Origin: an uncultured bacterium
Lineage (GTDB): Bacteria; AUK180
Direction: 5' to 3'
Length of the DNA stretch: 64,000 nt
NCBI GenBank assembly: GCA_937863565.1
Contig: CALMGJ010000028.1
Location: 40,802 to 104,801, forward strand
This document shows, piece by piece, positions 4,361 through 30,579 of the stretch. Under the pieces are notes generated by a model. The model had not been told where the DNA came from. It did no database searches and was given only the letters and a program-made list of their open reading frames with translations. The translations under genes and the position numbers were made by a program. Position 1 is the stretch's first letter. Every line of letters begins with the position of its first letter.

Positions 4361-4366
4361 TTTTTT

Positions 4367-6537: not shown

Positions 6538-7904
6538 ATCTTCTCCTCTTCTATATTGTAAGACTTTATCTTGTTTATCAGGGTCGCCCTCGATATGCCG
6601 AGCGCCTGCGCGGCCTTCGTATGGTTGTTATTGTATTTTTTCAAATTCGCGATCACCGCCTGCCTCTCTATCTCGGACAGCGGCACATCTGCGCTTATCC
6701 CTTTTCCGTTACCGTTCCCCCTCCTTGGCTTGGCGATGCCCGCGATATAATCGGGAAGCATCCCGGGTTCTATGGCGCCGCCGTTATTGAAGACCACGAT
6801 ATGCTCGATGAGGTTCTTGAGTTCCCTGATATTCCCCGGCCACGCATATTCATTCATAAGTTTCACCGTCTCTTTGGAGAAAGTGAAGAGCGGTTTCTGG
6901 TACTTGCGGGAATAGTCGATCATGAAGAAATTGGCAAGAGGATATATGTCCGCAGGCCTGTCCCTCAATGCGGGAATGTCTATCTGCACCACCTTGATCC
7001 TGTAATAAAAATCCTCCCGGAACTTCCCTTCCTCGATGAGTTTTATAAGATCTTTGTTCGTCGCGAAAACGATGCGCGTATCGATCTTTTTAACTTCGGT
7101 GCTCCCGACAGGCGTTATCTCCTTCGACTCCAAGAACCTCAGAAGCTTCACCTGGGTAAAAAGGGAGAGCTCGCCTATCTCGTCCAGAAAGAGCGTGCCG
7201 CCGGCGGCCAGCTCGAATTTGCCCTTTTTAGACGATACGGCGCCCGTAAAAGCGCCTTTCTCGTGACCGAACAGTTCCGATTCCAGAAGCGTCTCGGGGA
7301 GCGCCGAGCAGTTTATCGGGATAAGGGGTCCGTCGCGCCGCTGCGAATTGTAATGAATGGTCCGGGCTATCACCTCTTTGCCCGTGCCCGATTCCCCGGT
7401 AAGAAGCACATTGGCGTCCGTCGGCGCGATCTGCTTTATCTTGCTTATGATCGTTTCCATTTCGGAAGAGGCGAAAATGATATTCTCGAAATTGTACCTG
7501 TCGAGAAGTTTCTCCTTGAGGTTTTTTACCTCCTTCTGAAGTCCGAGCTTCTCATAGGCCTTCTCTACGAAGATCTCCAGTTCCTCTAATTTGAACGGCT
7601 TCATCAGGTACTGGTAGGCCCCGCTTTTAATGGCCTCGATGGCCACATCTATCGACGACACCCCGGTGATGACTATGATCTCCCCGTTCTTCCCCGAACC
7701 TTTCAGTATCTTGATAAGTTCCATACCGCTTTTATCCCTCAGATTGAGATCGGTCACGACCACGTCGAAATCGTTCTTCTTGAGAAGTTCCAGCGCGTCC
7801 TCGACGGAATCCGCTCCCTCCACAAAGTCCTTCTTGAACCTGAAGTAATCGATGACGGACTGCCTTATCCCGGCATTATCCTCTACGATCAGAAGTTTTC
7901 TCAT
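6534..7904 (-). CDS. sigma-54-dependent response regulator (NtrC family: REC + AAA+ + Fis-type HTH)
   Basis: LLIVEDN...VVVTDLNL receiver; GESGTGKE Walker A; ESELFGHEKGAFTGA GAFTGA motif; C-terminal HTH AAQALGISRATLINK. Track start 7913 is TTG; ATG at 7904 preferred. Confidence 0.9.
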   Translation of the reverse strand: MRKLLIVEDNAGIRQSVIDYFRFKKDFVEGADSVEDALELLKKNDFDVVVTDLNLRDKSGMELIKILKGSGKNGEIIVITGVSSIDVAIEAIKSGAYQYLMKPFKLEELEIFVEKAYEKLGLQKEVKNLKEKLLDRYNFENIIFASSEMETIISKIKQIAPTDANVLLTGESGTGKEVIARTIHYNSQRRDGPLIPINCSALPETLLESELFGHEKGAFTGAVSSKKGKFELAAGGTLFLDEIGELSLFTQVKLLRFLESKEITPVGSTEVKKIDTRIVFATNKDLIKLIEEGKFREDFYYRIKVVQIDIPALRDRPADIYPLANFFMIDYSRKYQKPLFTFSKETVKLMNEYAWPGNIRELKNLIEHIVVFNNGGAIEPGMLPDYIAGIAKPRRGNGNGKGISADVPLSEIERQAVIANLKKYNNNHTKAAQALGISRATLINKIKSYNIEEEKI

Positions 7905-8565
7905 AAACCTCAAGGTCCTCCGGAAAATCGAATTTGAATACCGTTTTCATATCGTTCGAAATAAAATCTATATTTCCTTTCAGATGCTCCGCGAAGCGCT
8001 TGGAGATGGCAAGCCCCATACCGCTCCCCTGCTCCTTCGTCGTGAACATCGGCTCGAATACGCGATCCCTCAGGCCCTCCTCTATCTTCGGCCCGGCATT
8101 CTCAACGCTGAACATGATGCTCTCGCCTGTCTTTACCGTGGAGATGAGTATCTCGGAACCCTCATTGCAGGCCTCTATGGCGTTTTTTACAAGGTTCATT
8201 ATCACGGTCTGAACCTTGAAACCGTCCTGGTTCACCGCGCCTATCTGAAGATCGAAAGCGAGTTTCACTCTCGCGCCTTTCTCGTTTATATAGCCCTGAA
8301 GGTCGTCCACGATCTCCTTGATCATCAGGTGCAGATCGAACCTCTTCACATCGTTCTCCGTTTTCTGGAAAAGGTTAACATTGCGCGCCATCTCATAGAG
8401 CTTGTCGGCCTGGACGAGAAGTTTTGAAAGCAGGCGTTTTTCTATCTCGTTCTTCTCGGGGCTCTTATCATAGGCCTTTTTCAAAAATTGGAGATTGAAG
8501 ATGATCGGCTGCGCCGCGTTCTTGATCTCGTGGATGAGGTATTTCAGAGTATCTTTTTCGTCCAT
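7876..8565 (-). CDS. histidine kinase lacking any sensor/TM domain (DHp + HATPase_c only)
   Basis: H-box LIHEIKNAAQP near N-terminus; G-boxes EQGSGMGLAISK; 229 aa; overlaps the regulator start. Confidence 0.8.
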   Translation of the reverse strand: MDEKDTLKYLIHEIKNAAQPIIFNLQFLKKAYDKSPEKNEIEKRLLSKLLVQADKLYEMARNVNLFQKTENDVKRFDLHLMIKEIVDDLQGYINEKGARVKLAFDLQIGAVNQDGFKVQTVIMNLVKNAIEACNEGSEILISTVKTGESIMFSVENAGPKIEEGLRDRVFEPMFTTKEQGSGMGLAISKRFAEHLKGNIDFISNDMKTVFKFDFPEDLEVYEKTSDRRG

Positions 8566-8925
8566 ACTGCGTATTATAGCAAAAAAATAGAAAATGTAAA
8601 AATATTTTACACTCCGATAAGGTGAAATATCTCACATTTATTTTAATATTGGACATTAATGGAAATCCTTAAAAATAGGGATTTTATCCGTGAAAACCGC
8701 CTATCCGTGGCCTTTTTGCTTTATTCTGTTCGTATCATCTGCATTTTCATTATTCACTGCGCTTCGCATAACTCTCAACTTATTTAGACAGTTCACTATT
8801 CACTTCGTTTCGGCCGACTTTCAACTGTCAACTCTTTCTCTATCTTCTCTTTTATCGTTCATTATTCATTATTCTTAGATTGTGACGTTATGTAAAATAT
8901 AAAGACCAGGTACCTTCACATTTAC

Positions 8926-9456
8926 TTATTTAGGTTTTATCGACGTATATTTTCTAAATTCAGGATCGCCATTCTTATAATTTGTATTTTCATAATATGG
9001 AACTATTTCTTTAAATGGTGATTTAAATTTCTGATAATATCTCTTACCTTTAAATTTACATACAATAATTGGTTTCGAATCTTCACTATCACAGTCTCTT
9101 ATATATTCAATCCACTCAAATGGAACTATACCAACAGGAATATTTCCACCTTTTTTGTCGAGAATAAATTGAACTCCATATTCTTGAATAATCGTGTAGA
9201 GTTCTGCGCCCTGTTTATAGTAGGTATTGTTTGTTTCATCTTTTCGTTCAGCATTATACTTTTTGACATCTGCAAGAATTATTTTTTTATACAATACAAT
9301 CTCTCGAATTTGCTTAGTTATTTTCATCTCATGTTCATATTTTTCTCTTGCTGATATTTGCTGTGTTAACGCGTATAGATGATACCCTACGAACACACCG
9401 ACAATTATCGCGATTAATGCTATTAGATTATCCCAAAAATAAAACGTAAAGTCCAT
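8926..9456 (-). CDS. hypothetical single-pass membrane protein (AT-rich island)
   Basis: N-terminal TM NLIALIAIIVGVFVGYHLYAL; N/K/Y-rich composition; ATG verified at 9454-9456. Confidence 0.55.
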   Translation of the reverse strand: MDFTFYFWDNLIALIAIIVGVFVGYHLYALTQQISAREKYEHEMKITKQIREIVLYKKIILADVKKYNAERKDETNNTYYKQGAELYTIIQEYGVQFILDKKGGNIPVGIVPFEWIEYIRDCDSEDSKPIIVCKFKGKRYYQKFKSPFKEIVPYYENTNYKNGDPEFRKYTSIKPK

Positions 9457-9543
9457 TTAATCCCACTCTTCATAATAGATTGTGTTACTTTCATCTATCG
9501 CGCCCAAAAACATATTTTTCCAGACATGTATTTTCACGCGGAA

Positions 9544-10707
9544 CTATCTATTCCCTTTTGCCTGATTATGCGTTTTGCACAGCATTTGGCAATTAGCGGC
9601 ATCCGTAGCGCCTCCTTTGCTCCATGCTGTAACATGATCCGCGTCCATTTCATTTAATTTCCAGACCTTGCCTTTATTGGCATCGTGGCCCAGTGCGCAT
9701 AGCGGGCAATTTGAATGGCCGTTCCTTTCGGCTTCTTCCGTTTGCTTTGCATAAACGGTCTTCTTTGTGGCATCGTCAAATACCCTTACATTGAGTAGTT
9801 TTGTCTCTTTGGACCCTCCGAGAATATATTCAAATATCCCCTTCCGGTTTTTGATATACGGATCCCCGTAGAGTTCTTTCACCTGATCGGATACGGCTTT
9901 GGGATCATATGAATTCTTATGATATTTTTCATAAAGCCTGCCCCACTCCAATCCTTTCATCTCGCTTTCCACATCAATGAATACGCCCGATACCCAATCT
10001 ATGACGCTATTGAAATAAACTTTCAGTTCTTTAATATTATCGTCATAACGGTGCTTGCTCATATATTCACCGATATTGCCTTTGCTTACCCAATCCAGCG
10101 CGCATTCCATAAATTGCTGGCGGTTCACGCTTCCCGATATATAGGCGCTCCATTTCTGGATATTGGAATTTTGACTATTGCTGAACTCTTCCTTCCCCAA
10201 AGTAACAAATGGGCCCGAATAAACGGCATTGAGCAGTTCCTGGTCATTAAGCGGAACGCCCGCGATATTGATAGTTCTAAACCATTCTTTTATTTCGCTT
10301 TCCGTGCCTTCGCATTCATAGATGAGAAGATTGGTATTCAAGATCTTATCCTGTTTGTCCTCTGCTATCCCGCTGAAATACTGCTCCATCCCGTTCTCGT
10401 CTTTGACGGCGAACTTATTGGTAACGAAACGGCCGAAACTCGTGATGCGCTGTTGGCCGTCCAATACTTCGAGCTTATCCTCGCTTACTTTATTGAAATA
10501 GATCAATCCGAGAGGATAACCCTTGAGCAGCGATTCGATAACGGCAACATCCTTTTTGCCGTCCGCATAAATATAATTACGCTGATACTCCGGCTGTATC
10601 GTCAATCGCCCCGATAGACCGAAAAGACCCTTGCCTTCCAGTTCATTATAAACAAAACCATCGCAGATGTCTTTTACGGTGATGTCGATCTTTAAATTTG
10701 TTCTCAT
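9544..10707 (-). CDS. DUF262 (ParB-like, DGQQR) domain fused to C-terminal HNH endonuclease; GmrSD-like nuclease
   Basis: IQPEYQRNY and [12 protein letters not shown] in N-domain; C-terminal CPLC...[32 protein letters not shown] is a canonical HNH; ATG 2 nt downstream of methyltransferase stop. Confidence 0.8.
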
Positions 10708-10709
10708 TT

Positions 10710-11765
10710 TTATTTCCTGTGTTTAATTAGAATTCGAAAATATGGGCAGGCACCGTTTTTTAATCGCAAATCCTTTTCATCATTTCCATGCCTGAATTTT
10801 ATAATCTCAAACTGCTCCGGTGAATATTTGTCCAGAAAACTGATCGGAACTCCCATCACTCCGTCATAATCGCTCGGTATGGCATCCGTAAACGGGACCT
10901 CTATGGCATCATAATTGTCATATTTTTGATATTCCTTTCCCTTGATCTCTTTATGTTTGCTGTATTTTATATTGTCTTCCATTGTCATCAGGGGCAATGG
11001 TTGGTGACGCCTTCCATGATCAAGATTGGTGAACCAACGAACGCCTTTAATCCGCAAGAATTTATTCCCGTCTTTGTCAATTCTCCACCCGGCGGCAGTT
11101 ATTGGATAATCATCCGGCACTTGAAATTCTCTATCTCCGCTTCTAATACTTGGGCCGAGCCACATTCTATCACTTTTTATCAAAGGAAATACTTCTTTGT
11201 ATGTAATTGAATTCATATTCCCAATAATTAAAAATTGCTTTTCCCATTCCGTAATCCATGCCAGAAATTCCCTGAACAATGAAAAAGGCGGATTGGTAAT
11301 AATGATATCTGCCTCATCGCGTAATTTCGTAACTTCTTTGCTTCGAAAGTCGCCGTCCCCTTCCATATAATGCCATTCCAGGTCATCCACATCTATTTTG
11401 CCGTTCCCTGTTCTATCGTGATTTAATATAAATATCTTTCCGTTCTTGGCGGTTTTATTCTTGTCGAATTTAGGGTCGCTTGTTTCAAATAAAGTGGGTT
11501 GATAATTGGATTTACATTTTTTACTTTCCGCAGCATAACTCGTGCTTATGAGTTTTTTCAGCCCGAACCTGTGGAAGTTCTGAGCAAAGTACTTGGTAAA
11601 ATTGCTCCATTCGGGATCATCGCAGGGTAATAAAAGCGTCTTACCGCGGAATACATTGTGATCATACTCTATATACGCATTGATCTCTTTTTCTATATCA
11701 TTGTATTGAGTATAGAACTCATCGTTTTTCGCATTTTTAGCATTTGATAAATTGCTATTCGCCAT
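10710..11765 (-). CDS. N6-adenine DNA methyltransferase, EcoRI-methylase-like family
   Basis: KNDEFYTQ near N-terminus and IITNPPFS (motif IV); family assignment from memory of EcoRI methylase. ATG verified at 11763-11765; track start is an upstream extension. Confidence 0.65.
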
Positions 11766-11923
11766 AATATTATTATAATACTTTCCCCCGTATATTTCAA
11801 ATCTTTTCTTAATGAAAAAGAGGGACGTTGGTTGAAAAAGGTGAAATTTCCATATTGTTTCATGCAATCTTGATTTCAGCGCGGATTTCGTTATAATATT
11901 ACGGAACAGGGAAATGTTTTAAA

Positions 11924-12667
11924 ATGAAACTCCGAATAACGGCAACGGTCCTGATGTGCTTATTGCTTGCCGCTTCCTGCGGTAAGCAGAGCATCTCGCA
12001 AAAGGGGGAAAATACTATGGAAGAGAGCGGTCAATTCGCACAGAGAAGGAGTGAGATGGTGCAGTACCAGATCCGGGCGCGCGACATTACAAATAAAAAG
12101 GTCATCGAAGCGATGCTCAAAGTGGAGAGGCACAGATTCGTTCCGGAAGATGTTAAGGAGTACTCCTACGAAGACTATCCCCTTCCTATCGGGGAGGGTC
12201 AGACGATCTCCCAGCCGTATATCGTAGCCTTCATGACGGAGATGATCGCGCCCGGACCCGAAGACAAGGTGCTCGAGATCGGAACGGGATCCGGATACCA
12301 GGCGGCTATACTTGCGGAGATCGTGGCGGAAGTATTCACTATCGAGATCAATGAAGCGCTTTACAGAAGAACAAAAGCCCTCCTTTCCGGAATGGGATAT
12401 AAGAATATCCATACGATCTGCGGCGACGGATTTGCGGGTTATCCTGAAGCCGCGCCATTCGACAAGATAATAGTCACCGCCGCATCGAGCGAAGTACCGC
12501 CGAAACTCTTCGAGCAACTCCGCGAAGGCGGAAAGATGATAATACCGGTAGGCGAAGGGTATCAGGAACTCCTTCTCATCACTAAATTAAATGGGCAGAT
12601 GATAAGGGAGAATGTGCTGCCGGTGAGATTCGTTCCATTGATCGATAAAAACGGAAAACGATATTAA
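11924..12667 (+). CDS. pcm: protein-L-isoaspartate O-methyltransferase with lipoprotein signal
   Basis: ISQPYIVA, VLEIGTGSGYQAA SAM motif; N-terminal LLLAASCG lipobox. Confidence 0.9.
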   Translation: MKLRITATVLMCLLLAASCGKQSISQKGENTMEESGQFAQRRSEMVQYQIRARDITNKKVIEAMLKVERHRFVPEDVKEYSYEDYPLPIGEGQTISQPYIVAFMTEMIAPGPEDKVLEIGTGSGYQAAILAEIVAEVFTIEINEALYRRTKALLSGMGYKNIHTICGDGFAGYPEAAPFDKIIVTAASSEVPPKLFEQLREGGKMIIPVGEGYQELLLITKLNGQMIRENVLPVRFVPLIDKNGKRY

Positions 12668-12771
12668 GAACTGTTAAAAATTCACATACAAAACTTGTCA
12701 AGGTGTAAAATTATTTGACGATCCCCTATGCGGGACAAGGACAATATTCCCAATATGTCATTATTTACTAA

Positions 12772-12790
12772 CTTGGCACAGGCATTGCTT
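12772..12790 (+). promoter_or_regulatory. sigma-54 (RpoN) -24/-12 promoter
   Basis: TTGGCACaggcaTTGCT at 12773-12789 (TGGCAC-N5-TTGC spacing as in consensus), ~30 nt upstream of hsp20 ATG at 12818; GGAGG RBS at 12808-12812. Confidence 0.7.
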
Positions 12791-12817
12791 AATATAAAAA
12801 GTAATGCGGAGGTATGA

Positions 12818-13153
12818 ATGAGAGCATACAATGAACTCGACCTTAATGTAAAAATGATCAAGGACCGGATCGAGATCAGCGTGGAAGTCCCCGGACTCAA
12901 CCGCGACGATATCGATATCATGGTCTTCGGTAATCTTTTCCGTATAGTGGCTAAATATCCCGAGTTCACGGATAACGACCGCTTCCTTCTGAAGGAGATA
13001 AGAAGGAACGGAACGGTGGAGCGCGAGTTCAGGCTCGATCAGCCCGTAGATACCGGCAAGATAAGCGCCGAATTAAAAGGCGACGGCATTCTCAGAATCA
13101 CTCTTCCGCTTACCAGGGAAGAAAAGAAAATAATAAACATCAGGGAGGTGTGA
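12818..13153 (+). CDS. Hsp20/alpha-crystallin small heat-shock protein
   Basis: alpha-crystallin domain, GILRITLP motif. Confidence 0.85.
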   Translation: MRAYNELDLNVKMIKDRIEISVEVPGLNRDDIDIMVFGNLFRIVAKYPEFTDNDRFLLKEIRRNGTVEREFRLDQPVDTGKISAELKGDGILRITLPLTREEKKIINIREV

Positions 13154-13154
13154 T

Positions 13155-13604
13155 ATGAAGATCAGAAAATTTTACGATGACGACGGAGTGTTCAAGAAGC
13201 TCGCCAGGCTTGAGAATTTCTTCAGTGATGTCTTCGAGGACGGGGATTTCAAATCTTCACCTCTGGTTCAGACGAACTGGGCGCCGAAGATCGACATCAA
13301 GGAGAAAAAGGATTCCTACGAAGTGACGGCGGAATTCCCGGGAATGAACAAGGAAGACATAGAAATCTCGCTCGAGGACAATATCCTTGTTTTCAAGGGA
13401 GAGAAGAAATTCGAGGAGAAAAAGGAGGAGGATAACTACCTCCACATAGAAAGGTCCTACGGTAATTTCTACCGCTCTTTCAAACTCCCCGAAGCGATCG
13501 ATACGGAAAAAGTCGATGCTTCATTTAAAAACGGCGTTCTGCATCTCGTTCTTAAGAAAAAGCCCGAAAGCAAGGGCAAGAAGATCGAGATCAAAGGCGA
13601 GTAA
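13155..13604 (+). CDS. Hsp20/alpha-crystallin small heat-shock protein
   Basis: SYGNFYRSFKLP...GVLHLVLKK alpha-crystallin motifs. Confidence 0.88.
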   Translation: MKIRKFYDDDGVFKKLARLENFFSDVFEDGDFKSSPLVQTNWAPKIDIKEKKDSYEVTAEFPGMNKEDIEISLEDNILVFKGEKKFEEKKEEDNYLHIERSYGNFYRSFKLPEAIDTEKVDASFKNGVLHLVLKKKPESKGKKIEIKGE

Positions 13605-13614
13605 CGGCAATCTT

Positions 13615-13653
13615 CGGAGGGCGGATTAAAAACGCCCTCCGCTCTTTCTATTT
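13615..13653 (+). terminator. hairpin (9-bp stem CGGAGGGCG / CGCCCTCCG, 9-nt loop) followed by T-rich tract; probable intrinsic terminator/attenuator between hsp20 and dnaK
   Basis: Perfect inverted repeat 13615-13623 / 13633-13641, then ctctttctattt. Confidence 0.5.
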
Positions 13654-13664
13654 AGGAGAATGAT

Positions 13665-15605
13665 ATGGCACAGAAAAAAGTGATCGGTATCGACCTCGGT
13701 ACCACGAACTCATGCGTAGCGGTAATGGAGAACGGACAGCCCAAAGTACTTTACAATACTGAAGGATCCAGAACAACGCCGTCCGTCGTCGCTTTCAAGG
13801 ATAACGACGAGATCATAGTCGGCGCGGCCGCGAAGAGACAGGCAATAACCAACCCTTTGAATACGGTATTCTCGGTAAAAAGGCTCATAGGCCGTTCTTA
13901 TGAGGAAATAAACGAAGAACTGAAACTGATCTCGTACAAGGTATCCAAGGGCAAATCCCAGAATGTCCTCCTCGAGATCGGCAATAAGAAATATACGCCT
14001 CAGGAGATATCCTCGATGGTACTCAAAGAAATGAAGAAGATCGCCGAGGATTATCTCGGAGAAAAAGTCGAGGACGCGGTCATAACAGTGCCGGCATATT
14101 TCAACGATTCCCAAAGGCAGGCGACGAAGGACGCAGGCAAGATCGCCGGGCTTAATGTGCTTCGTATTATAAATGAGCCCACTGCAGCGGCGCTTGCTTT
14201 CGGCGCCGACAAGAAGAAGGATGTTAAAATAGCCGTATACGACCTCGGCGGCGGCACCTTCGATATCTCCATTCTTGAGATCAATGAAGGCGTTTTCGAA
14301 GTGAAATCCACCAACGGCGATACCCATCTCGGCGGCGACAACTTCGACCTTGCGATTTTGAACTGGATAGCCGATTCGTTCAAGAAAGAGAAAGGCATCG
14401 ACCTTACTAAGGACCCGATACCGCTACAGAGATTGAGGGATGCGGCGGAGAAGGCCAAGATCGAACTTTCTTCGAAGCTCGAAACGGAGATAAATCTGCC
14501 TTTCGTTACAGCGGATGCCAACGGCCCGCAGCACCTGCAGATGACGCTTTCCAGGGCAAAATTCGAGAATCTCGTAACGGATCTCATCGAGAAATCCATA
14601 GAACCGTGCAAGAAAGCGCTCAAGGATGCGAAGACCTCCGCCAAAGACATTGATGAAGTACTTCTCGTCGGCGGAATGACCAGAGTGCCGATGGTGCAGA
14701 AGAAAGTGGAGGAATTCTTCGGTAAAAAACCGAACAAAGGCATCAACCCCGACGAAGCGGTTGCGGTCGGCGCGGCGATCCAGGGTTCGATCCTTGCCGG
14801 GGACAAGACGTCGGGCGACATTCTGCTCGTTGATGTTACTCCCCTGACCCTCGGCATTGAAACGCTGGGCGGAGTATCAACTCCCCTCATAACGCGCAAT
14901 ACGCCTATTCCTACAAAGAAATCCGAAATCTTCACAACGGCGGACAATAATCAGCCGGCGGTCGATATCAGAGTGCTTCAGGGCGAGAGACCCATGTCTG
15001 CGGATAATAAGCTCATCGGGCAATTCCAGCTTGCAGGCATACCCCCTGCGCCGAGAGGCATACCGCAGATCGAAGTAACTTTCGATATCGACGCAAACGG
15101 CATTCTCCATGTCACAGCAAAAGATAAGGCCACCGGAAAGGAACAGACGATCAAGATACAAGTCTCAAGCGGTCTTTCAGATGCCGAGATAGACAAAATG
15201 GTCAATGAAGCCAAGGAACACGAGGAAGAGGACAAGAAAAGGCGCGAGCTCATCGAAGCACGCAATAAGGCCGAATCGCTTATATACCAGACGGAGAACC
15301 TTCTCAAGGAGATGAAAGAGAACAATAAGCTTGATGCGAAGGAAGGCCAGGAATTGAGCGAAAAGATCGAGAAATTGAAAGAGGTGGCTAAAGGCGAAAG
15401 CAAAGAGGCCATAGAAAAATCTATAGACGATCTTTCGAAATTCTTCGCGGGCATATATCAGAAATACGGTCAGACAGCTGGACAACCCGGAGGCAATGCG
15501 GGTCCCGGTCCTGAAGCCGGCACTCAGCCTGAGAGCGGCGCGGGCCCTGAAGGTCCAGAAGCCAAGAAAGACGACGTCATAGACGCAGATTTCGACGAGA
15601 AATAG
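13665..15605 (+). CDS. dnaK: molecular chaperone DnaK (Hsp70)
   Basis: [33 protein letters not shown] signatures; 646 aa. Confidence 0.97.
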
Positions 15606-15616
15606 TTCACATATAC

Positions 15617-15652
15617 GGGAGGCCTTCGCGCGGAGGCCTCCCTGTTTTGTTT
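15617..15652 (+). terminator. hairpin GGGAGGCC / GGCCTCCC followed by TGTTTTGTTT; intrinsic terminator after dnaK
   Basis: Inverted repeat 15617-15624 / 15635-15642, T-rich tail. Confidence 0.55.
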
Positions 15653-15657
15653 AAGCG

Positions 15658-16716
15658 ATGGAAATAAAAGATTATTATAAAGTTCTCAATGTCCCCGAAA
15701 GCGCCACGCTCGATGAGATCAAAAGGTCATTTCGCGAACTTGCAAAAAAATACCATCCTGATATTAACAAGGCACCCGATGCCGAAGCAAAATTCAAGGA
15801 AGTAAACGAAGCCTATCAGATCCTCTCCGATCCCGACAAGAAGATAAAATACGACGAATACAAAAAGTACGGCGGTAATCCTTTTGCGGGCGGAGGAGGA
15901 GGCGGGGGCAGCGCGCAGGATATTTTTGCCGATCTTTTCGGAGGAGGGTTCAGATCGGGAGGAGTTGAGGATATTTCAGACCTTTTCTCGGGTTTCTTCG
16001 GAGGCGGAGAGAGGAGGAATTCATACGAGGACCTTGCCATCCATATCCAGATCACGCTCACTTTCGAAGAATCCTATTCCGGTACGGAAAAATATATATC
16101 CTTCAACCGGGCCTCTCCTTGCGCATTCTGCGGGGGAAGCGGCGCGACGGAAAAAACAGCCTGCCCTCACTGCAAAGGGAGAGGCAGCATCGCCAGCAAC
16201 TCCGGTTTTTTCTCAATGCAGAGAACTTGCCCTTACTGCAAAGGCACGGGAAGCATTGCCAAGACCAAATGCAATGTTTGCCAGGGTACCGGAAAGAAGC
16301 ATATCACTGAAAAGAAAGCGGTTAAAATACCTTCCGGAGCAAGGACGGGAGACAAACTTACGATAAAAGGTCTGGGAAATTCCGAGAACGGCATGGCCGG
16401 GCCTTTGGTGATCCATATTGCCGTTATGAGCTCTCCCGTTTATTCCCGCGAAGGCAATAATCTCGTGCTGAACCTTAAAATAGATCTGAAGCAGGCGCTT
16501 GCAGGAGATAAAGTGAAGATAAGGCATTTCGGAAAGGAACTGACCGTCACGATCCCCCCGGGGACCAATAACGGGGATGTGCTTTCATTGCGGGGCATGG
16601 GAATGAAACGCGGGCGCGATGCGGGCAACCTTCACCTTAAGATCTCTCTCACGCTTCCGAAGAAACTCACAAAGAAACAGAAGGATAAACTCGACGAATT
16701 CCTGAAGACCCTGTAA
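15658..16716 (+). CDS. dnaJ: DnaJ-family co-chaperone (J domain, G/F region, 4x CxxCxGxG zinc finger)
   Basis: DYYKVL...YHPD J domain; glycine-rich linker; CAFCGGSG, CPHCKGRG, CPYCKGTG, CNVCQGTG. Confidence 0.85.
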   Translation: MEIKDYYKVLNVPESATLDEIKRSFRELAKKYHPDINKAPDAEAKFKEVNEAYQILSDPDKKIKYDEYKKYGGNPFAGGGGGGGSAQDIFADLFGGGFRSGGVEDISDLFSGFFGGGERRNSYEDLAIHIQITLTFEESYSGTEKYISFNRASPCAFCGGSGATEKTACPHCKGRGSIASNSGFFSMQRTCPYCKGTGSIAKTKCNVCQGTGKKHITEKKAVKIPSGARTGDKLTIKGLGNSENGMAGPLVIHIAVMSSPVYSREGNNLVLNLKIDLKQALAGDKVKIRHFGKELTVTIPPGTNNGDVLSLRGMGMKRGRDAGNLHLKISLTLPKKLTKKQKDKLDEFLKTL

Positions 16717-16726
16717 TGGGCAGATA

Positions 16727-18013
16727 TTATTTCATAGTTTTAAGAAGCTCTCTCGTCTTTTTAAGCCAGAACCTTGAATCCATGGCCAAGAAAGCATCTT
16801 CCGCCTTTCCGGCATATCTCTTCGCCTCAGCGGGACGGAAGACTCTCAAAGCCGAAGCCAGTTCGTAAAGCGTGATGCCGAATTCAAAGCGGTTTCTCAT
16901 TTTTCCGGCAACGGATACGGCCTTTTTCAGACAGCCGACTGCGATTTTTTCCGGAGCGTTTCTGCGCAATTTCGCTTTGCACCTGAGATAAACGATCTCC
17001 GCTTCCTCGTTTCCGTATTTCGCAAGAAGTATCCCCGCCTTCTTAAGATACTCTTCCGCTTTCATTTTATCGTCCGCGGCATGAAACGCTTCCGAGAGAG
17101 CCGCATAGACTACAGGGAGATGTGCCTCAGCCCCGCATGAAGAAAAGCTTTCCTCCGCCATTATCAGCAGGCCGGCGGCTTTCCCCGGCATGTCTCTGTG
17201 AAGATATATCATGCCCATACTGAAATGTGCGAATCCGGCGCCGATCCTGTAACCTACCTGTTCGGATATCGAAAGGCATCGTTTGAAACTCTCCTCGGCG
17301 GTCTTCAGTTTTCCCAGATTGAAATATGTCTGCCCGATGTTGCCTTCGATGCTTGCCAGCCCCATTCTGTAATTCACTGCCTTGAACGTATCCTTTGCTT
17401 TCATGTAATATTTCAACGCTTCGGGCAGTTCGCCGACAGTCCGGCAGATTATTCCGATATTGGTATTTGCGATCGCGGTTCCCATCCTGTCCTTCAGTTC
17501 TTCCGAGTTTTTAAGCCTCTTTTCCAGATACTTCAGCGCGAGGCCGTATTTTCTTTTGTTCCAATAAATAAGTCCCGTTATATTGTAGGCGATCCCGAGA
17601 TTGATTTTATCGCCCGTTCTGATGAATATATCCCGTGCTTTCCTGCTGTGTTCCAAAGCTTTGTCGTACTCGCCTCTTTCCCACTCGATAGTGGAAAGGA
17701 CATGGAGGCCGTACGCGAAAAGTTTGGGATCCTTCCGCGAACCGATATAACGGAAACCTCTGCCGAGCAGTTTCAGGGCTTCAACATGGTTTCTTTTCCC
17801 CCGGTCGAAAATATTGGCAAGATCGAAGCTTATTTTGGCAGTCAGTGACCGGTCTCTGATGTTCTGTTTTCTACATATTTGAAGTGAAAGTTCAAGGTCG
17901 CTTATAGCTTTGTCCGTATTCCCAATGATGTCGTACACAAGGCCGCGGAGGCTCAGAGCACGCGCATAGAGCATTCCCGGGGCCTTAGCCGTACTTCTGC
18001 GGTTAAAGTTCAT
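16727..18013 (-). CDS. TPR-repeat protein
   Basis: repeated AxxNxGxxYxxxGxxxxAxxYYxKA units. Confidence 0.8.
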   Translation of the reverse strand: MNFNRRSTAKAPGMLYARALSLRGLVYDIIGNTDKAISDLELSLQICRKQNIRDRSLTAKISFDLANIFDRGKRNHVEALKLLGRGFRYIGSRKDPKLFAYGLHVLSTIEWERGEYDKALEHSRKARDIFIRTGDKINLGIAYNITGLIYWNKRKYGLALKYLEKRLKNSEELKDRMGTAIANTNIGIICRTVGELPEALKYYMKAKDTFKAVNYRMGLASIEGNIGQTYFNLGKLKTAEESFKRCLSISEQVGYRIGAGFAHFSMGMIYLHRDMPGKAAGLLIMAEESFSSCGAEAHLPVVYAALSEAFHAADDKMKAEEYLKKAGILLAKYGNEEAEIVYLRCKAKLRRNAPEKIAVGCLKKAVSVAGKMRNRFEFGITLYELASALRVFRPAEAKRYAGKAEDAFLAMDSRFWLKKTRELLKTMK

Positions 18014-18621
18014 TCTTCTCCGCCCGGCAGTTCATTACTGCAGGCCGGGCAGACCGTTTTCCCGTCCTTTTTTTTAAGATAAGGTTCCGCCGTTTTCTCA
18101 CCGCAGATATCGCATCTTCCGGAAACGAATATCCTCGCTGTTCCGGGCATTTTTCCCACAGGACGGCCGAGCTTTATATATTTCTCTTCCGGATCCGTCA
18201 ATATCCTTTTGATCCTTCTTTCCTTGATCTCACTCTTCTCTTTCCTTTCGGAATCCGTAAGTACGTCTTTTTTCGCAAGTTCGATAAAGCGTTTGTCGTC
18301 ATCGTCGTCTTTATAGTACGGTTCCGCATATATCCTCACGCCTTTACCCGTCTTGCGGTTGTAGAACGTGTAAACATTCTTACCGCGGTCCCTGATGATA
18401 AGGTTCCCCTTCCCCGCCGTGCAGCCGCATATGATCTGTATGGCGTCTATGCCGCAGGCGCCGTTCTCCACGACAGCTACGAATTCTTCATCATCCGCCC
18501 GACCGGATGAAAGTTCTCTTAGCGCTATCGTTGCCACTCTGTACCCGACGGCAAGTCCGGGGCAGGAATGCCCGTGAAATTTCACGGCGTCCTTGAACGA
18601 TGCTGATTTTTTATTTCCCAT
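18010..18621 (-). CDS. FmdE-family protein with C-terminal zinc ribbon
   Basis: FHGHSCPGLAVGYR motif; C-terminal CDICG...CPAC. Confidence 0.7.
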   Translation of the reverse strand: MGNKKSASFKDAVKFHGHSCPGLAVGYRVATIALRELSSGRADDEEFVAVVENGACGIDAIQIICGCTAGKGNLIIRDRGKNVYTFYNRKTGKGVRIYAEPYYKDDDDDKRFIELAKKDVLTDSERKEKSEIKERRIKRILTDPEEKYIKLGRPVGKMPGTARIFVSGRCDICGEKTAEPYLKKKDGKTVCPACSNELPGGEE

Positions 18622-19606
18622 TCTCCGTCTCCTTTGAAAGGCGGCTTACCAGTTCTGCGCGGTCCTTCCAGCCAAGTTTATTAAAGATCTCCGCCGCTTT
18701 AGCCAGATTGTCTTTTCCGGTCATCTTGCCCGTCATCCGGAAAAGTTTTTCCGCATATTTTTCCGCTTTCTTTATTTTATCGGATTCGATGATTGTCTGA
18801 ATTAAGTTAATAAAACTCTCTTCCTCGCCGCTGCGGTCGTTTATCTCGTGCCTGATATGAACCGCTTTCTCAAGAAAAGAAACAGCATCGGACGAGTTCC
18901 CGGAAAGGGCAAGCAATCGCCCGAGATTATTGAGATTCACAGCCTGTCCGTACTTGTCCCCTATCCTGATTCTGATTTCAAGCGATCTTTTAAAACAACC
19001 GATAGCCCCTTTATAATCCTTTTTTAAATAACACAGATAACCGACATTATTACAGTTGCTTGCTTCACCCTTCAAATCCCTATATTTCACACATATCGTA
19101 AGGGAATCGCTAAAACACTCATGTGCAGATGAATAATCCCTGAGAATATTGTAAATAACGCCCTTATTATTCAGTATTAAAGCCGCTGTTTCCGGATCAT
19201 GACTTTTCTTCGCGGCGGCATATGCTTCCGAATAACATTGAAGAGCCTTTTGATGAGCACCCAGTTTTTTATAAGCGACACCCAAAGAATTCAAGCAATT
19301 CACAGCACTCTTTTTCAATCCCGCTTTCTTCATAAGTGATAGGGCTGCTTCTTCTATTCTCAGCATTTCAGAATCTTTACCAAGAACCCCTTTTATATGA
19401 CCTATCTCCATCATACATACGGACTCGTTTATAGGATCATCGATCCTGCGCGATATCCTCAACGCTTTTTTCAAGTCTTCAAGAGCCCGGAAAGGTCTTC
19501 CCGTCAGTTTATACAAGTTGGCCCGCATTCTGAGAGCACGGCAGTATGTTTTAAGGTCTTTTATCTTATATTTATTTTTCAACGGGACCAGCGGACGACA
19601 AGGCAT
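18611..19606 (-). CDS. TPR-repeat protein
   Basis: TPR units throughout. Confidence 0.8.
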   Translation of the reverse strand: MPCRPLVPLKNKYKIKDLKTYCRALRMRANLYKLTGRPFRALEDLKKALRISRRIDDPINESVCMMEIGHIKGVLGKDSEMLRIEEAALSLMKKAGLKKSAVNCLNSLGVAYKKLGAHQKALQCYSEAYAAAKKSHDPETAALILNNKGVIYNILRDYSSAHECFSDSLTICVKYRDLKGEASNCNNVGYLCYLKKDYKGAIGCFKRSLEIRIRIGDKYGQAVNLNNLGRLLALSGNSSDAVSFLEKAVHIRHEINDRSGEEESFINLIQTIIESDKIKKAEKYAEKLFRMTGKMTGKDNLAKAAEIFNKLGWKDRAELVSRLSKETENGK

Positions 19607-19646
19607 AGATCAGCCGAAACCGATATATATTTGAGAGAAAAGCCCG

Positions 19647-20309
19647 TTAGATTTTCACGCATGTAAAAACGGCCGTATTATCCCATTGTTTCCTTATTTC
19701 TGCAATTTTAAATCCTGCCTCCAAGAATAACCGGATCTGCGTATCATTTGACAATGGCGTATCATAATGATATAAACCTGTAGAAATATTATTCGCTTTT
19801 CTTATTCTCTCACTTTCTTTTTGAAAATAAACTTCTTTATCTTTAGTCCGAACGGTATAATCGCCTTCAATATATACGGCATTCGGTTTTAGGGAATTAT
19901 ATATCTTCTTATAGAGCGATAATTTAGAGTCCGGACTGAAATGATGAAGCGAGTATGTTGAAATTGCCCAGTCATATTTCGAGAAGCCGTATTCAACATC
20001 GAAGTATGAGGCACACATTATATGGAGTTGATCTTTCTTTTCCTTGAATTTTTCCAATAGTTTTTCCAGCATTTTATCTGAAATGTCGATGCAGGTAATT
20101 TGAGCATTTGGGGCCGAAAGAAAAATATTTGAAATTTCCAGGCCCGTGCCGCAGCCGATATCTAATATTTGAGCGTTTGGCGGTCCTTTGGGGAAGTACT
20201 CGGCGATAGCATCATAAAATTCCCGAAGATTTAATTCTTCCAGCATATGCAGATCATATGTCTGAGCCCGAGAATTAAAAAAATCCTTCATCTCTTCCGG
20301 TTTTTCCAT
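19647..20309 (-). CDS. class I SAM-dependent methyltransferase
   Basis: ILDIGCGTGLE motif I; ATG at 20307-20309 with GGAGG RBS preferred over track start 20399. Confidence 0.75.
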   Translation of the reverse strand: MEKPEEMKDFFNSRAQTYDLHMLEELNLREFYDAIAEYFPKGPPNAQILDIGCGTGLEISNIFLSAPNAQITCIDISDKMLEKLLEKFKEKKDQLHIMCASYFDVEYGFSKYDWAISTYSLHHFSPDSKLSLYKKIYNSLKPNAVYIEGDYTVRTKDKEVYFQKESERIRKANNISTGLYHYDTPLSNDTQIRLFLEAGFKIAEIRKQWDNTAVFTCVKI

Positions 20310-20355
20310 CTTTTCCTCCTTCAGCCCCGCCAGAATGTACAACGGAATAATACCC

Positions 20356-21072
20356 TCAGAAGACACCGGGGAGCAACCGGTAACGCACACGGCGAACATA
20401 ATCCCGATACCCCGGCAATTCTTCCTGTAAAGTCTTATCTTCCAGAGCGGTCCTTATCACGGCAATGATCAGAGCTGCTATCACCGGAATGATCGTCCAA
20501 ACTGAGCTTAAAGCCAGCACAATGCCCGGCAGTGCCAGGAGATTTCCGGCATAGCCCGGATGTCTTACGATCCGATACGGGCCAGTATCACATACCATAT
20601 GTCCCCGGTCAGTCTGTATGCGCACTACGCTTGAGAAGAAGCGGTTCTCTATTAAAGCCCATCCGGCGAAAGAGTATCCGAATACGATCAGGATGAAGCC
20701 CGGGATATTGAGCCATATCGGGAATACGGGTGACCAACCGAAGCGGTGATCTAATCCTGCCACAATAAATAATGGAAAAGATATACTTACCGCCATTAAT
20801 GGAGAAAGCACTTTATCCCACGATTTCACATCCTGAGCTTTTCCGAATTTACTTCGTTCTGCCATCAATCCGGGATGCCTTTTTTCTGCCCGGATACGCG
20901 GACCTATGCCTGCTGCGATTATCAGGGCCGAATAAAACCACCCCTGCCACCAACCGGGATCCCGTCCGCATATCAAGAGAACCGGCGGTATGAGGAGATA
21001 TGTTATTATTACAGCCAAATATTTAGGGTTTGCTGTATTAAACGTATTTGGGTTAATTGTATTAGACATCAT
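20356..21072 (-). CDS. isoprenylcysteine carboxyl methyltransferase (ICMT/PEMT) family membrane protein
   Basis: multiple TM helices; RIVRHPGYAGN motif. Confidence 0.7.
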   Translation of the reverse strand: MMSNTINPNTFNTANPKYLAVIITYLLIPPVLLICGRDPGWWQGWFYSALIIAAGIGPRIRAEKRHPGLMAERSKFGKAQDVKSWDKVLSPLMAVSISFPLFIVAGLDHRFGWSPVFPIWLNIPGFILIVFGYSFAGWALIENRFFSSVVRIQTDRGHMVCDTGPYRIVRHPGYAGNLLALPGIVLALSSVWTIIPVIAALIIAVIRTALEDKTLQEELPGYRDYVRRVRYRLLPGVF

Positions 21073-21147
21073 ATTTAATCCCTCCCTTTTTCCGCTGCTT
21101 TCATCGGTATCCCGATGCGGATATCCTGCCTCATTTTCTCAAACGAT

Positions 21148-22221
21148 CTATTGAACGTTCGTTGCCCTACCGGCTGGCATCAATACTCCGGTTTCATCGA
21201 TGATTATTCCGTTTTCCGGGATGTCCTCATCTGTAAGTTTGATGATCTCCTTAAGCGCGGTATTCCCATCATCGGCGACCGGAATGCCCCGGCCGATCTG
21301 TTTTATGGATATGATATTGCCCTCTATGAACTCTCCCCGGGCATTTAATTTCGCTTTGAGTATCGGGGCCACGCCATTAGAGCCCTGCAGATTGAACCTT
21401 CCGTATGTGCAGAAATTGCCCAGACTGTATGCGATCAGGCGGCCTTTATAGACCTCCACTGCTCTTGAGACATGAGGGCCGTGGCCGAGTACAAGGTCCG
21501 CGCCGGCATCTACCGCGAGATGCGCGAATTCGTTTACATTCCCTCTGTATTCGGAGAAATAGTATTCCTTCTTTCCGGTGACATGCCTGTATTTGCTGCC
21601 TTCCCCGCCGCCGTGGAACGATACGATTACGATATCGTTCTCCTGTTTCAGTGCAGAGATCATCTTTGCGGCGCAGGGATAATCGTTCATATTATTGGTT
21701 CTTCTGTTCGGCGAGAATGCGATAAAGCCTATTTTCAATCCATTCGCTTCGAATTCACAGAAAGGTATATCCTCCGTGCCGGCATAATTGAACCCGTTAG
21801 CTTCAAGAGTTTTTACGGTTGTCCGCATGCCTTCTTCGCCGAAATCCCATATATGGTTATTGGCGATGCTGAGAAGACTGAAACCCGCATCCGAAATGAT
21901 CTTCCCGAAGCTCTCCGGCATTTTGAACACATAGCAGGCGCTCTTCTCCCTTCCCCGGCATTTTTTCGATTCGATCCTTTTGTCGCAGAGCGTGCCCTCA
22001 AGGTTCCCGAACACTATATCCGCTTCAAGATAATCTTTTACACCGTTAAAAATATCCTTGCCGCTATCAGGCGGGAGATAGGATCTGTTCGGATACCATG
22101 TTCCGATCATGATATCGCCGACAGCACTGATCGTTATCGCAGGCGTATCTCCGCCTTGATAAGAGTATCCGAAAGTGATCGAGGAAAAAAGAATGAGAAA
22201 TAGAACGGAAAATACTCTCAT
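21148..22221 (-). CDS. CapA/PgsA-family metallophosphatase-like protein
   Basis: signal peptide; GNLEG, ANNH, SFHGGGEG, GHGPHV motifs. Confidence 0.75.
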   Translation of the reverse strand: MRVFSVLFLILFSSITFGYSYQGGDTPAITISAVGDIMIGTWYPNRSYLPPDSGKDIFNGVKDYLEADIVFGNLEGTLCDKRIESKKCRGREKSACYVFKMPESFGKIISDAGFSLLSIANNHIWDFGEEGMRTTVKTLEANGFNYAGTEDIPFCEFEANGLKIGFIAFSPNRRTNNMNDYPCAAKMISALKQENDIVIVSFHGGGEGSKYRHVTGKKEYYFSEYRGNVNEFAHLAVDAGADLVLGHGPHVSRAVEVYKGRLIAYSLGNFCTYGRFNLQGSNGVAPILKAKLNARGEFIEGNIISIKQIGRGIPVADDGNTALKEIIKLTDEDIPENGIIIDETGVLMPAGRATNVQ

Positions 22222-22320
22222 ATCAGTAAGTTATCATATTTTCCGGTGTTTTTCAAATCATCTTACCGGACAGCCGGCGCCGGCTTAAAGACCATGCCCG
22301 CTTAGTATCAATTAAATACT

Positions 22321-22482
22321 ACTCAGAGATGAAATGAATAACAGCATGCAAAAGCGCAAATAGAAGCGCAAGCGCACCGGATATCTTATGGAGTTTCAGT
22401 TTCCACTTCATTAGTCCGCTCAAACCGGTTAGAATGATGAATACTAAAGTAAGAATACCCGCAAGGCCGAAGATCCTGTTCA
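22321..22482 (-). CDS. putative small hydrophobic protein (about 53 aa), not in ORF track
   Basis: ATG at 22480-22482 preceded by AGGAG (5-nt spacer); hand translation MNRIFGLAGILTLVFIILTGLSGLMKWKLKLHKISGALALLFALLHAVIHFISE; stop followed by GC-rich palindrome AGCCGGCGCCGGCT. Confidence 0.35.
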
Positions 22483-22497
22483 TGGTCACTCCTATTA

Positions 22498-22974
22498 TTA
22501 CCTGTTAAGTTCTTTGAGAACGCCGAGAAGTTCCTTGACATCCGGAACTTCTTTGATCGGATATATCTTGTAGAATAGTATCCTCCTTTTTTCACCTACG
22601 ATAACATTCGCTCTCTGCGAGAATCCCTTTTCATCATCAAAAAGACGGAGTTTTTTGCTGAATTTCCCGTGAGGCCAGAAATCGGAAAGAAGAAGAAGTT
22701 TTTTCAATTTAAGATGTTCTGCCCATGCATGTTTGCACGGTACGGGGTCCACGGAAACGCCCAAAGGCAGGCAATCGAGTTTTAAAAACTCATCATAATT
22801 CTCTTCCAGCGACAGCATCTGGTCCGTGCATACTTTGGTCCAGGCCAAAGGATGGAAAGAGAAAAGGACAAAGCCCCCTTTATGTTCCGTGAGTCTGAAC
22901 TCTTTTGCATGATGGTCCGGAAGAATCGCCTGTTTTATCTCCTCCCCGACGGGGTTCTCAATTATCTTTTGCAT
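22498..22974 (-). CDS. peroxiredoxin-like thioredoxin-fold protein (AhpC/TSA family)
   Basis: FHPLAWTKVCT resembles the Prx F.P..FT.VC active-site motif. Confidence 0.6.
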   Translation of the reverse strand: MQKIIENPVGEEIKQAILPDHHAKEFRLTEHKGGFVLFSFHPLAWTKVCTDQMLSLEENYDEFLKLDCLPLGVSVDPVPCKHAWAEHLKLKKLLLLSDFWPHGKFSKKLRLFDDEKGFSQRANVIVGEKRRILFYKIYPIKEVPDVKELLGVLKELNR

Positions 22975-23001
22975 ATGAACTCCTTATATTGTTTCTTATG
23001 T

Positions 23002-28600: not shown

Positions 28601-28671
28601 ACAACCCTCCCTTTTTTTTTATTATAACATAAACGCTTCAATTCAACAATCCCGGTCTGAAGCCGCTGTTT

Positions 28672-29733: not shown

Positions 29734-29766
29734 ATATATCCGCTTTCTTAAGCGGATTTTGCGGCC

Positions 29767-30540: not shown

Positions 30541-30579
30541 CTCCGTTCAAAACTTCCCAGCGTTCCGACTTTAATTAAA

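Follow-up and report, generated by a model that had tools for sequence, protein, structure and literature searches.

A sigma-54 promoter with a conserved upstream dyad at an hsp20-dnaK-dnaJ operon from an uncultured bacterium

The hsp20-dnaK-dnaJ locus

A 64,000-nt stretch of contig CALMGJ010000028.1 (assembly GCA_937863565.1, an uncultured bacterium), referred to throughout as the window, includes an operon of four chaperone genes, hsp20a, hsp20b, dnaK and dnaJ, which is preceded by a sequence resembling the -24/-12 promoters of sigma-54 RNA polymerase. Control of heat-shock genes is usually taught as the work of sigma-32, of HrcA and its operator CIRCE (controlling inverted repeat of chaperone expression), or of HspR. 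A first-pass annotation had recognised the gene order hsp20-hsp20-dnaK-dnaJ, and this was confirmed with Pfam in a domain scan that covered 63 open reading frames (ORFs) of the window and left out one of 79 aa (35375-35614). Features of the operon and of the region immediately upstream are as follows.

12704-12720, no strand assigned: putative upstream activator site, dyad TGTAAAATTATTTGACG, with its centre 62 nt 5′ of the T of TGGCAC (approximately -88)
12774-12789, plus strand: predicted sigma-54 promoter TGGCACAGGCATTGCT, with GG at -25/-24 and GC at -13/-12; top score in the window
12800, plus strand: predicted transcription start, an A, 12 nt past the C of the GC element, in the standard -24/-12 geometry
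12808-12812, plus strand: GGAGG ribosome-binding site of the first hsp20 gene, from the sequence
12818-13153, plus strand: hsp20a, 111 aa, Pfam HSP20; alpha-crystallin domain with almost no N-terminal arm, C-terminal I-N-I
13155-13604, plus strand: hsp20b, 149 aa, a canonical small heat-shock protein (sHsp), Pfam HSP20; N-terminal arm, alpha-crystallin domain, I-E-I
13615-13641, plus strand: hairpin between hsp20b and dnaK, 9-bp GC-rich stem and 9-nt loop, followed by CUCUUUCUAUUU; folding z -2.9
13665-15605, plus strand: dnaK, 646 aa, Pfam HSP70 (869 bits)
15617-15652, plus strand: terminator-like hairpin between dnaK and dnaJ, 11-bp stem and 4-nt loop (15617-15642), followed by UGUUUUGUUU; z -3.4
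15658-16716, plus strand: dnaJ, type I (J domain, zinc finger and C-terminal domain, from Pfam)

The sigma-54 promoter

The TGGCAC-N5-TTGC core (TGGCACAGGCATTGC, 12774-12788, plus strand) has its GG and GC dinucleotides exactly 10 nt apart, as in the TGGCACG-N4-TTGCW consensus. It had been reported to lie about 30 nt upstream of the first hsp20 gene, which is right when counted from the -12 element; the T of TGGCAC is 44 nt from the hsp20a start codon (ATG at 12818), on the same strand. In a weight-matrix scan of both strands (128,000 positions) this site scored best, with 17.8 bits, the runner-up (14.5 bits) being intragenic, and it is the sole intergenic sigma-54 site in the window above 11 bits. 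It is also the single exact occurrence of the core in the window, where shuffled windows are expected to hold 0.08 and at least one match arose in 6 of 100 shuffles. One-mismatch matches numbered 2 against 2.25 expected by chance, so the motif count by itself proves little. Transcription from the predicted start at 12800 would give a leader of 18 nt.

Related genomes and conservation of the promoter

The window DnaK shares 77-78% identity with that of four groups of uncultured genomes and no more than 68% with all others, the nearest outgroups being Calditrichia, Zixibacteria, Latescibacteria and Bacteroidetes. A scan of metagenomes for closer relatives found no DnaK above 65% identity, and exact-sequence database look-ups of the window DnaK and of the activator protein described below returned no record. 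One relative, RS_10.bin.39 (JAGLGN, GCA_023144005.1), is from a South China Sea cold seep, with an assembly of 2.67 Mb that is 96.6% complete and is assigned to GTDB phylum UBP15 (PMC9357000 supplement); by similarity, the window appears to fall in the same deep uncultured clade. A high-scoring DnaK match of 939 aa (P0122) belongs to an unrelated GC-rich organism and was discarded. The source organism is predicted to be an anaerobe because genes elsewhere in the window specify, according to Pfam, hydrogenase maturation proteins, a NiFe hydrogenase, and heterodisulfide-reductase-like and 2-oxoacid:ferredoxin oxidoreductase proteins; many tetratricopeptide repeat (TPR) proteins are also found there.

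The comparison set consisted of 160 dnaK loci from genome and metagenome collections, and a locus was scored positive when a coding-strand sigma-54 site of at least 13 bits lay within 1 kb upstream of dnaK. Such a site was present in 35 of the 41 loci with hsp20 directly upstream of dnaK and in 7 of the 114 dnaK loci without hsp20, counts that overstate the number of independent cases because many of the Balneolales loci are close relatives; in the opposite-strand control it was present in 5 of 155. The positive lineages, which are themselves independent, are the window clade, Ignavibacteria (L004, L006, L050 and L082), approximately 30 Balneolales, and two unidentified AT-rich contigs (L132 and L135). 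Exact TGGCAC-N5-TTGC sequences precede hsp20-dnaK-dnaJ in the three clades that, with the window, make up a set of four related clades, namely L001-3, L172/173 (L172 being GCA_021162505.1) and L174/175 (L174 being GCA_964453935.1), despite different upstream neighbour genes. Since it is conserved 5′ of hsp20-dnaK across lineages, the predicted sigma-54 promoter is judged to be functional.

Other elements accompany the promoter in particular lineages. The Balneolales (L008, L011-L038 and L084-L101) have a conserved TGTCAATACGTCA motif (variant CTGCCAAAGCGACAG) approximately 22-45 nt 5′ of the -24 element, in tandem duplicate in some loci; classical activator sites lie much farther from the promoter, and the motif may be where the regulator of that lineage binds. 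Ignavibacteria loci L004, L006 and L050 have an extremely A-rich leader of 45-65 nt 3′ of the promoter and repeated TTCACAA/TTGTGAA-type elements 5′ of it, an architecture unlike that of the window clade. Two close relatives of L003, L001 (3632-3800) and L002 (5733-6000), carry large internal deletions in hsp20 with the promoter, the dyad described below and dnaK intact, and these deletions are either real gene decay or assembly differences.

The kinase-activator-tdk operon

On the minus strand, three overlapping genes encode a small histidine kinase, an NtrC-type sigma-54 activator and a thymidine kinase.

5980-6537, minus strand: thymidine kinase (tdk), overlapping the activator stop codon and co-operonic in every ortholog
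6534-7904, minus strand: NtrC-type sigma-54 activator (REC, Sigma54_activat AAA+ and HTH_8), candidate activator of the chaperone operon
7876-8565, minus strand: soluble histidine kinase, 229 aa, with a dimerisation/His domain (H-box IHEIKN) and an ATPase domain
8573-8600, minus strand: sigma-70-type promoter of the operon, TTTACA-16-TATAAT, with the -10 box ending 7 nt before the ATG
8595-8611, no strand assigned: perfect dyad TGTAAAAATATTTTACA over the -35 box of this promoter, an exact match and a putative autoregulatory site

A sigma-54 regulator had been placed at 6534-7904 by the first-pass annotation, and the predicted protein has the parts that this implies, with Pfam domains PF00072, PF00158, PF25601 and PF02954 in the order REC (receiver)-AAA+-HTH_8, an intact GAFTGA motif (ESELFGHEKGAFTGA) and the REC aspartate. 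Its gene is approximately 4 kb from the chaperone operon. The second helix of its helix-turn-helix, SR[AP][TS]L[IL]xKI[KS], is near-identical in six orthologs and different in more distant homologs. The mini-kinase, activator and tdk genes overlap and stay together as one operon in each of the six orthologous contexts, the surroundings of which all differ, and the mini-kinase is probably the cognate kinase of the activator. The TTTACA-16-TATAAT architecture is likewise found in L165/167 and L168; because the -10 box ends 6-7 nt before the kinase ATG, the kinase-activator mRNA is predicted to be leaderless or nearly so. Near the activator orthologs, no sigma-54 site above 12.4 bits was found that could mark a further target. 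The independent assemblies represented by L164, L165, L167 and L169 break 30-410 nt upstream of the mini-kinase gene, which suggests a repeat or variable region.

A 17-bp dyad at the two promoters

The first-pass annotation had recommended a motif search for activator sites within 12668-12770, and the 17-bp dyad at 12704-12720 was found there. The dyad has the consensus TGTMAA-N5-TTKACA and also occurs at the kinase promoter, over the -35 box or immediately 5′ of it, as TGTAAAAATATTTTACA in the window, TGTCAAAATATTTTACA in L165 and CGTCAAAATATTTTACA in L168; the reverse complement of the window hsp20 site, TGTAAAATTATTTGACG, matches the L168 site in 15 of 17 bases. A dyad, TGTAAAGTTTCTTTACA, is present in the hsp20 upstream region of L001-3, and two are present in L172, 62 and 101 nt 5′ of TGGCAC (TGTCAAAAAAAATGACA and TGTCAAAAAATTTGACA), and in L174, 60 and 99 nt 5′ of it (TGTAAAAATATTTGACA and TGTAAAATTATTTAACA). 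The distance from the dyad centre to the T of TGGCAC is 62 nt in the window, L001-3, L172 and L173, and 60 nt in L174 and L175.

At approximately -88, the window dyad lies within the 70-150 bp upstream of a sigma-54 promoter where dyad-symmetric sites of NtrC-type activators are expected, and this is the classical geometry for the NtrC family. The 7-3-7 or 6-5-6 architecture of the 17-bp dyad also fits known NtrC-family sites. Sites that overlap the sigma-70 promoter of a regulator's own gene are the classical arrangement for autoregulation, well known for NtrC.

A scan trained on the three kinase-promoter sites only, and run over 1.73 million positions, returned 3 non-training 17-mers within two differences, one of which is the window hsp20 site. 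Inside the window, no non-training 17-mer other than 12704-12720 comes within three differences of these sites. Exact matches to the generalised pattern TGTMAANNNNNTTKACA number 11 in 1.76 Mb and represent six independent sites; each of the 11 lies either at a kinase-activator promoter of the window clade or 5′ of an hsp20 sigma-54 promoter, and approximately 160 other loci have none. Two assemblies that had supplied kinase-promoter sites, GCA_021162505.1 (L172) and GCA_964453935.1 (L174), provided an out-of-sample case, as the prediction was made before their hsp20-dnaK loci were inspected, and both loci carry a sigma-54 promoter with dyads at the predicted place. Because the dyad co-occurs at the hsp20 promoter and at the activator's own promoter, and not on grounds of proximity, the neighbouring activator is provisionally assigned to the chaperone promoter with moderate confidence. 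The near-identity of its second HTH helix among the six orthologs and the NtrC-like geometry of the dyad agree with this assignment.

K-mers common to the hsp20 upstream regions of the window and L003 were no more numerous than in shuffled sequence, a comparison that missed the dyad because the dyad spacers differ. The first candidate site, TTGTCAA-N13-TTGACGA (12695-12721), was a single occurrence, was not significant, and was replaced by the overlapping TGTAAA-N5-TTGACG dyad.

Three of the four clades have a semi-conserved ATTCCCAAT(AT) element in the interval from the dyad to the -24 element, approximately 20-30 nt 5′ of TGGCAC (window, 12744-12756; L174, about 3050-3062; L172, about 4262-4285). 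It is no match to the integration host factor (IHF) consensus, and no IHF consensus was seen by eye between the activator site and the promoter.

Small heat-shock protein genes and internal hairpins

The two hsp20 genes are 1 nt apart, with hsp20b translationally coupled to hsp20a, and their products are 33% identical. As adjacent paralogous alpha-crystallin proteins with IXI tails, the predicted pair resembles two-sHsp systems of the IbpA/IbpB type. Relatives have a single hsp20 gene, the ortholog of hsp20b, behind a longer leader or a small ORF. In L172 a 52-aa ORF (4336-4494) occupies the place of hsp20a and has a ribosome-binding site and start context (GCGGAGaTGAAAATG) similar to that of the window (GCGGAGGTATGAATG); it has no sHsp similarity and may be a remnant or a leader peptide.

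Both hairpins of the first-pass annotation (13615-13641 and 15617-15642) are real and terminator-like. The hairpin upstream of dnaK has a U-rich tail, but the U tract is interrupted and the loop is 9 nt, and it is probably a partial terminator or a transcript stabiliser. The one downstream of dnaK, with its UGUUUUGUUU tail, was called by both the terminator scan and folding, and has the form of an intrinsic (Rho-independent) terminator. No good Shine-Dalgarno sequence precedes dnaJ, which starts 15 nt past the hairpin. A GC-rich hairpin is likewise found between hsp20 and dnaK in Ignavibacteria, and in L003 the dnaK-dnaJ gap also holds a hairpin, unlike that of the window in sequence. Because relatives carry hairpins at the same positions, with different sequences, the earlier suggestion that internal hairpins set the hsp20:dnaK stoichiometry is supported, and expression would be graded in the order sHsp > DnaK > DnaJ.

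Other forms of heat-shock control

Elements of the better-known heat-shock systems were looked for in the window. The reported absence of CIRCE holds, as no match to TTAGCACTC-N9-GAGTGCTAA was found within 3 mismatches anywhere in the window. The HspR-associated inverted repeat (HAIR; CTTGAGT-N7-ACTCAAG) gave two 3-mismatch matches only, at 45287 and 49739, a number expected by chance, and both are distant from the operon. For a sigma-32 promoter (CTTGAAA, a spacer of 13-17 nt and CCCCATNT), the best match in 12560-12817 has 9 of 14 bases, and the plus strand of the window holds over 1,000 matches as good as this. No sigma-70-like promoter was found on the plus strand at 12668-12817. Rfam at gathering thresholds gave no match in the whole window, hence no known RNA thermometer or leader, and the predicted 18-nt leader has no significant fold (z -1.0) of the kind that an RNA thermometer would need.

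No GrpE, RpoN or HrcA domain was detected in the scanned ORFs; the intact GAFTGA motif of the window activator is an indirect sign that the genome has rpoN. The first-pass annotation was correct that grpE is missing from the operon, but a dnaK operon without grpE is ordinary, and is also seen in Flavobacterium psychrophilum (PMC9723704).

Proposed circuit and alternatives

The arrangement as a whole, in which a sigma-54 operon is switched on by a dyad-bound activator encoded nearby, with autoregulation of the activator and grading by hairpins, is considered moderately probable. In this scheme, hsp20a-hsp20b-dnaK-dnaJ would be a stress-inducible operon transcribed by sigma-54 RNA polymerase bound at 12774-12789, from a start near 12800. 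The NtrC-type regulator (6534-7904) would bind the dyad at 12704-12720, oligomerise, reach the polymerase by DNA looping and open the closed complex, and its activity would be set through phosphorylation by the sensor-less soluble kinase (7876-8565). The same regulator would bind the perfect dyad at 8595-8611 over its own -35 box, leading to autoregulation. Partial termination 3′ of hsp20b and stronger termination 3′ of dnaK would then yield more sHsp than DnaK and more DnaK than DnaJ, and read-through from the upstream gene pcm may provide basal transcription of the operon. What the sequence itself shows is the promoter, the domain content, and the dyads, conserved and at a constant distance; that the activator binds the dyads we infer, as we do whether the signal is heat or unfolded protein and in which direction the autoregulation works. 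The broader proposal of the first-pass annotation, that chaperone transcription here is sigma-54-dependent and gated by an activator, appears sound, given a -24/-12 element conserved in several lineages and no rival promoter or operator detectable.

Several observations weigh against the circuit. Among the 63 ORFs scanned by Pfam there is no rpoN gene, and the kinase has no sensor domain that Pfam recognises, which bears on where a heat or misfolding signal would enter. The window hsp20 dyad has one mismatch (TTGACG for TTGACA), and the window is without the clear second, distal dyad seen at 99-101 nt in L172 and L174. GCA_023144005.1 has its activator ortholog (66% identity) on one contig (31) and hsp20-dnaK-dnaJ on another (20); no dyad lies beside the kinase in that activator operon, and the only near-match, with one mismatch, is 3 kb upstream, within exbD. 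Because the four clades are related, part of the conservation of promoter and dyad could be inherited rather than selected, although divergence of the flanks argues against purely inherited conservation. The suggestion that the nearby NtrC-type regulator is the switch thus gains from the shared dyad and is weakened by the loss of linkage in GCA_023144005.1.

That loss of linkage favours the best-surviving alternative, in which the sigma-54 promoter is real but is served by a different, unlinked activator, and the dyad is the site of some other protein that controls both operons, such as a paralogous activator or a global stress regulator. The other sigma-54 hsp20-dnaK loci, those of Ignavibacteria and Balneolales included, lack an activator gene in the 5-6 kb around them, and in the literature found no activator is named for the sigma-54 chaperone regulons of Bacteroidota, three candidates being listed for F. 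psychrophilum and none assigned (PMC9723704). However, a dyad at approximately -88 is classical for a sigma-54 activator site and would be odd for a repressor, its architecture is that of NtrC-family sites, and its other location, in three clades, is the promoter of a sigma-54 activator operon. This alternative is regarded as unlikely.

A second alternative concerns the upstream neighbour of the operon.

11924-12667, plus strand: pcm, protein-L-isoaspartate O-methyltransferase (Pfam)

The pcm gene is on the same strand as hsp20a, has a sigma-70-like promoter (TTGATT-16-TATAAT, 11870-11897), and is not separated from hsp20 by a terminator. The operon might accordingly be transcribed mainly by read-through from pcm, or from an unrecognised housekeeping promoter, with the sigma-54 element contributing little or nothing. 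A basal supply of DnaK is normally required, and a sigma-54 promoter gives no transcription unless its activator is active. Yet in L003, L172 and L174 the upstream gene is different or divergent and the sigma-54 promoter and dyad are kept at fixed spacing, and neither a sigma-70-like nor a sigma-32-like promoter is evident on the plus strand across 12668-12817, which makes this explanation very improbable. That the -24/-12 match arose by chance in an AT-rich spacer, as a one-mismatch count equal to chance and an exact match in 6% of shuffled windows might allow, is untenable because of its position and strand, its conservation in six or more lineages, and its constant distance from a conserved dyad.

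If the proposed sigma-54 circuit operates, the sensor-less kinase and the NtrC-type activator could in addition be the cell's sensor of proteotoxic stress or temperature for its core chaperone operon, an extension that we regard as doubtful. DnaK/DnaJ or the sHsps might then titrate the kinase, rebuilding on a sigma-54 activator the feedback between sigma-32 and DnaK. If true, the same logic, with lineage-specific activators, would apply in Ignavibacteria, Balneolales and Bacteroidota, for whose sigma-54 hsp20-dnaK modules the literature searched names no activator.

Neighbouring genes

Between the activator operon and pcm, 9544-11867 (minus strand) carries genes for a GmrSD_N/HNH nuclease and an EcoRI-like adenine methyltransferase. 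L161 has Wzy_C, TPR and ExbBD genes upstream of the kinase instead of this restriction-modification pair, and because of this the segment looks like an inserted restriction or defence island. Directly 3′ of tdk are two tandem genes for paralogous 183-aa proteins with no Pfam match (4847-5398 and 5417-5968, minus strand); L161 has a 182-aa gene at the same position.

Downstream of dnaJ, the minus strand from 16727 to 35293 holds an array with at least 8 TPR-repeat protein genes, together with genes for a peroxiredoxin and methyltransferases and an FmdE-like gene. Within the array, a 713-aa double-AAA+ Clp-like ATPase (25928-28069) has no Clp_N domain, and no sigma-54 site lies 5′ of its gene. 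In L003 the gene 3′ of dnaJ, on the same strand, encodes a 611-aa rhomboid-domain protein (9070-10905). A rhomboid protease is among the targets of sigma-54 promoters in F. psychrophilum (PMC9723704).

Comparison with known systems

Sigma-54 control of chaperone genes is already documented, and the window is a further example. Transcription starts mapped in F. psychrophilum place -24/-12 promoters at groESL, lon, dnaK, grpE-dnaJ, htpG and clpB (PMC9723704), and a matrix survey of 2025 reported IbpA, DnaK, DnaJ, GrpE and GroESL to be over-represented among the sigma-54 targets that it predicted for Bacteroidota and Planctomycetota (PMC12316311). The HsfBA phosphorelay of Myxococcus xanthus, which includes an NtrC-like regulator, is described as a direct activator of lonD, a heat-shock gene (Ueki and Inouye 2002, as cited in PMC9109919). 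With a published case in Bacteroidota, a predicted one in Planctomycetota and the HsfBA-lonD precedent, the window circuit is of a known type; sigma-54 control of this operon, which the first-pass annotation had set apart from the usual modes of heat-shock control, is supported but is not new for chaperones. What is added is the extension, predicted from sequence, of sigma-54 hsp20-dnaK modules to a UBP15-related uncultured clade, Ignavibacteria and Balneolales, together with a concrete activator site at fixed spacing and a specific candidate activator with an autoregulatory site.

The window shares with the regulon of Bacteroidota, also predicted in Planctomycetota, -24/-12 promoters directly 5′ of dnaK, dnaJ and sHsp genes and a dnaK operon without grpE; the window promoter has no elements of the sigma-32 or CIRCE type. 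It differs from both in its lineage, an uncultured clade with one relative classified as UBP15. It differs from Bacteroidota in the operon hsp20-hsp20-dnaK-dnaJ, where F. psychrophilum has dnaK alone and grpE-dnaJ elsewhere (PMC9723704). A specific activator and DNA site can be proposed for the window, whereas the Bacteroidota and Planctomycetota papers assign none (PMC9723704, PMC12316311).

Sigma-54 with an ATP-driven activator is a fourth solution to heat-shock control, reported in Bacteroidota and predicted in Planctomycetota, for which the papers found name no activator or sensing mechanism. The window and its relatives offer a compact and fully specified candidate circuit, in which a promoter and a 17-bp site at a constant distance from it are joined by an activator and kinase pair and by a putative autoregulatory site, in an uncultured lineage of small genome size (2.7 Mb in the one relative with published assembly statistics). 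These parts are short enough to be synthesised and rebuilt in Escherichia coli, which has sigma-54, and the signal to which the activator responds would then be directly testable.

The M. xanthus HsfB/HsfA system, likened here by description, also pairs a histidine kinase with an NtrC-like response regulator acting on a heat-shock gene. HsfB is a hybrid kinase, whereas the window kinase is a 229-aa core without sensor or receiver domain; the gene activated in M. xanthus is lonD, not an operon of hsp20, dnaK and dnaJ.

Enteric NtrC, at glnAp2/glnAp1 and glnL, has 17-bp dyads both 5′ of a sigma-54 promoter and over a sigma-70 promoter, and its domains are in the same REC-AAA+-HTH_8 order as in the window activator. 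The NtrC site is TGCACC-N5-GGTGCA, in contrast to TGTMAA-N5-TTKACA in the window clade, its regulon serves nitrogen assimilation rather than chaperones, and the window kinase has no counterpart of the PAS sensor of NtrB.

In E. coli, the PspF-pspA system and the sigma-54 promoter of ibpB are likewise cases of sigma-54 transcription of stress-protective genes, an sHsp gene among them (cf. PMC2831329). PspF has no receiver domain and is controlled by binding of PspA, whereas the window activator has REC; moreover, ibpB of E. coli stands behind the sigma-32-driven ibpA, and its dnaK is a sigma-32 gene.

The NifA upstream activating sequence, TGT-N10-ACA, has the same TGT...ACA symmetry and lies at approximately -90 to -130 from its sigma-54 promoter. 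The window dyad differs in its TGT-N11-ACA spacing and conserved inner bases, and the window activator carries a REC domain, not the GAF domain of NifA.

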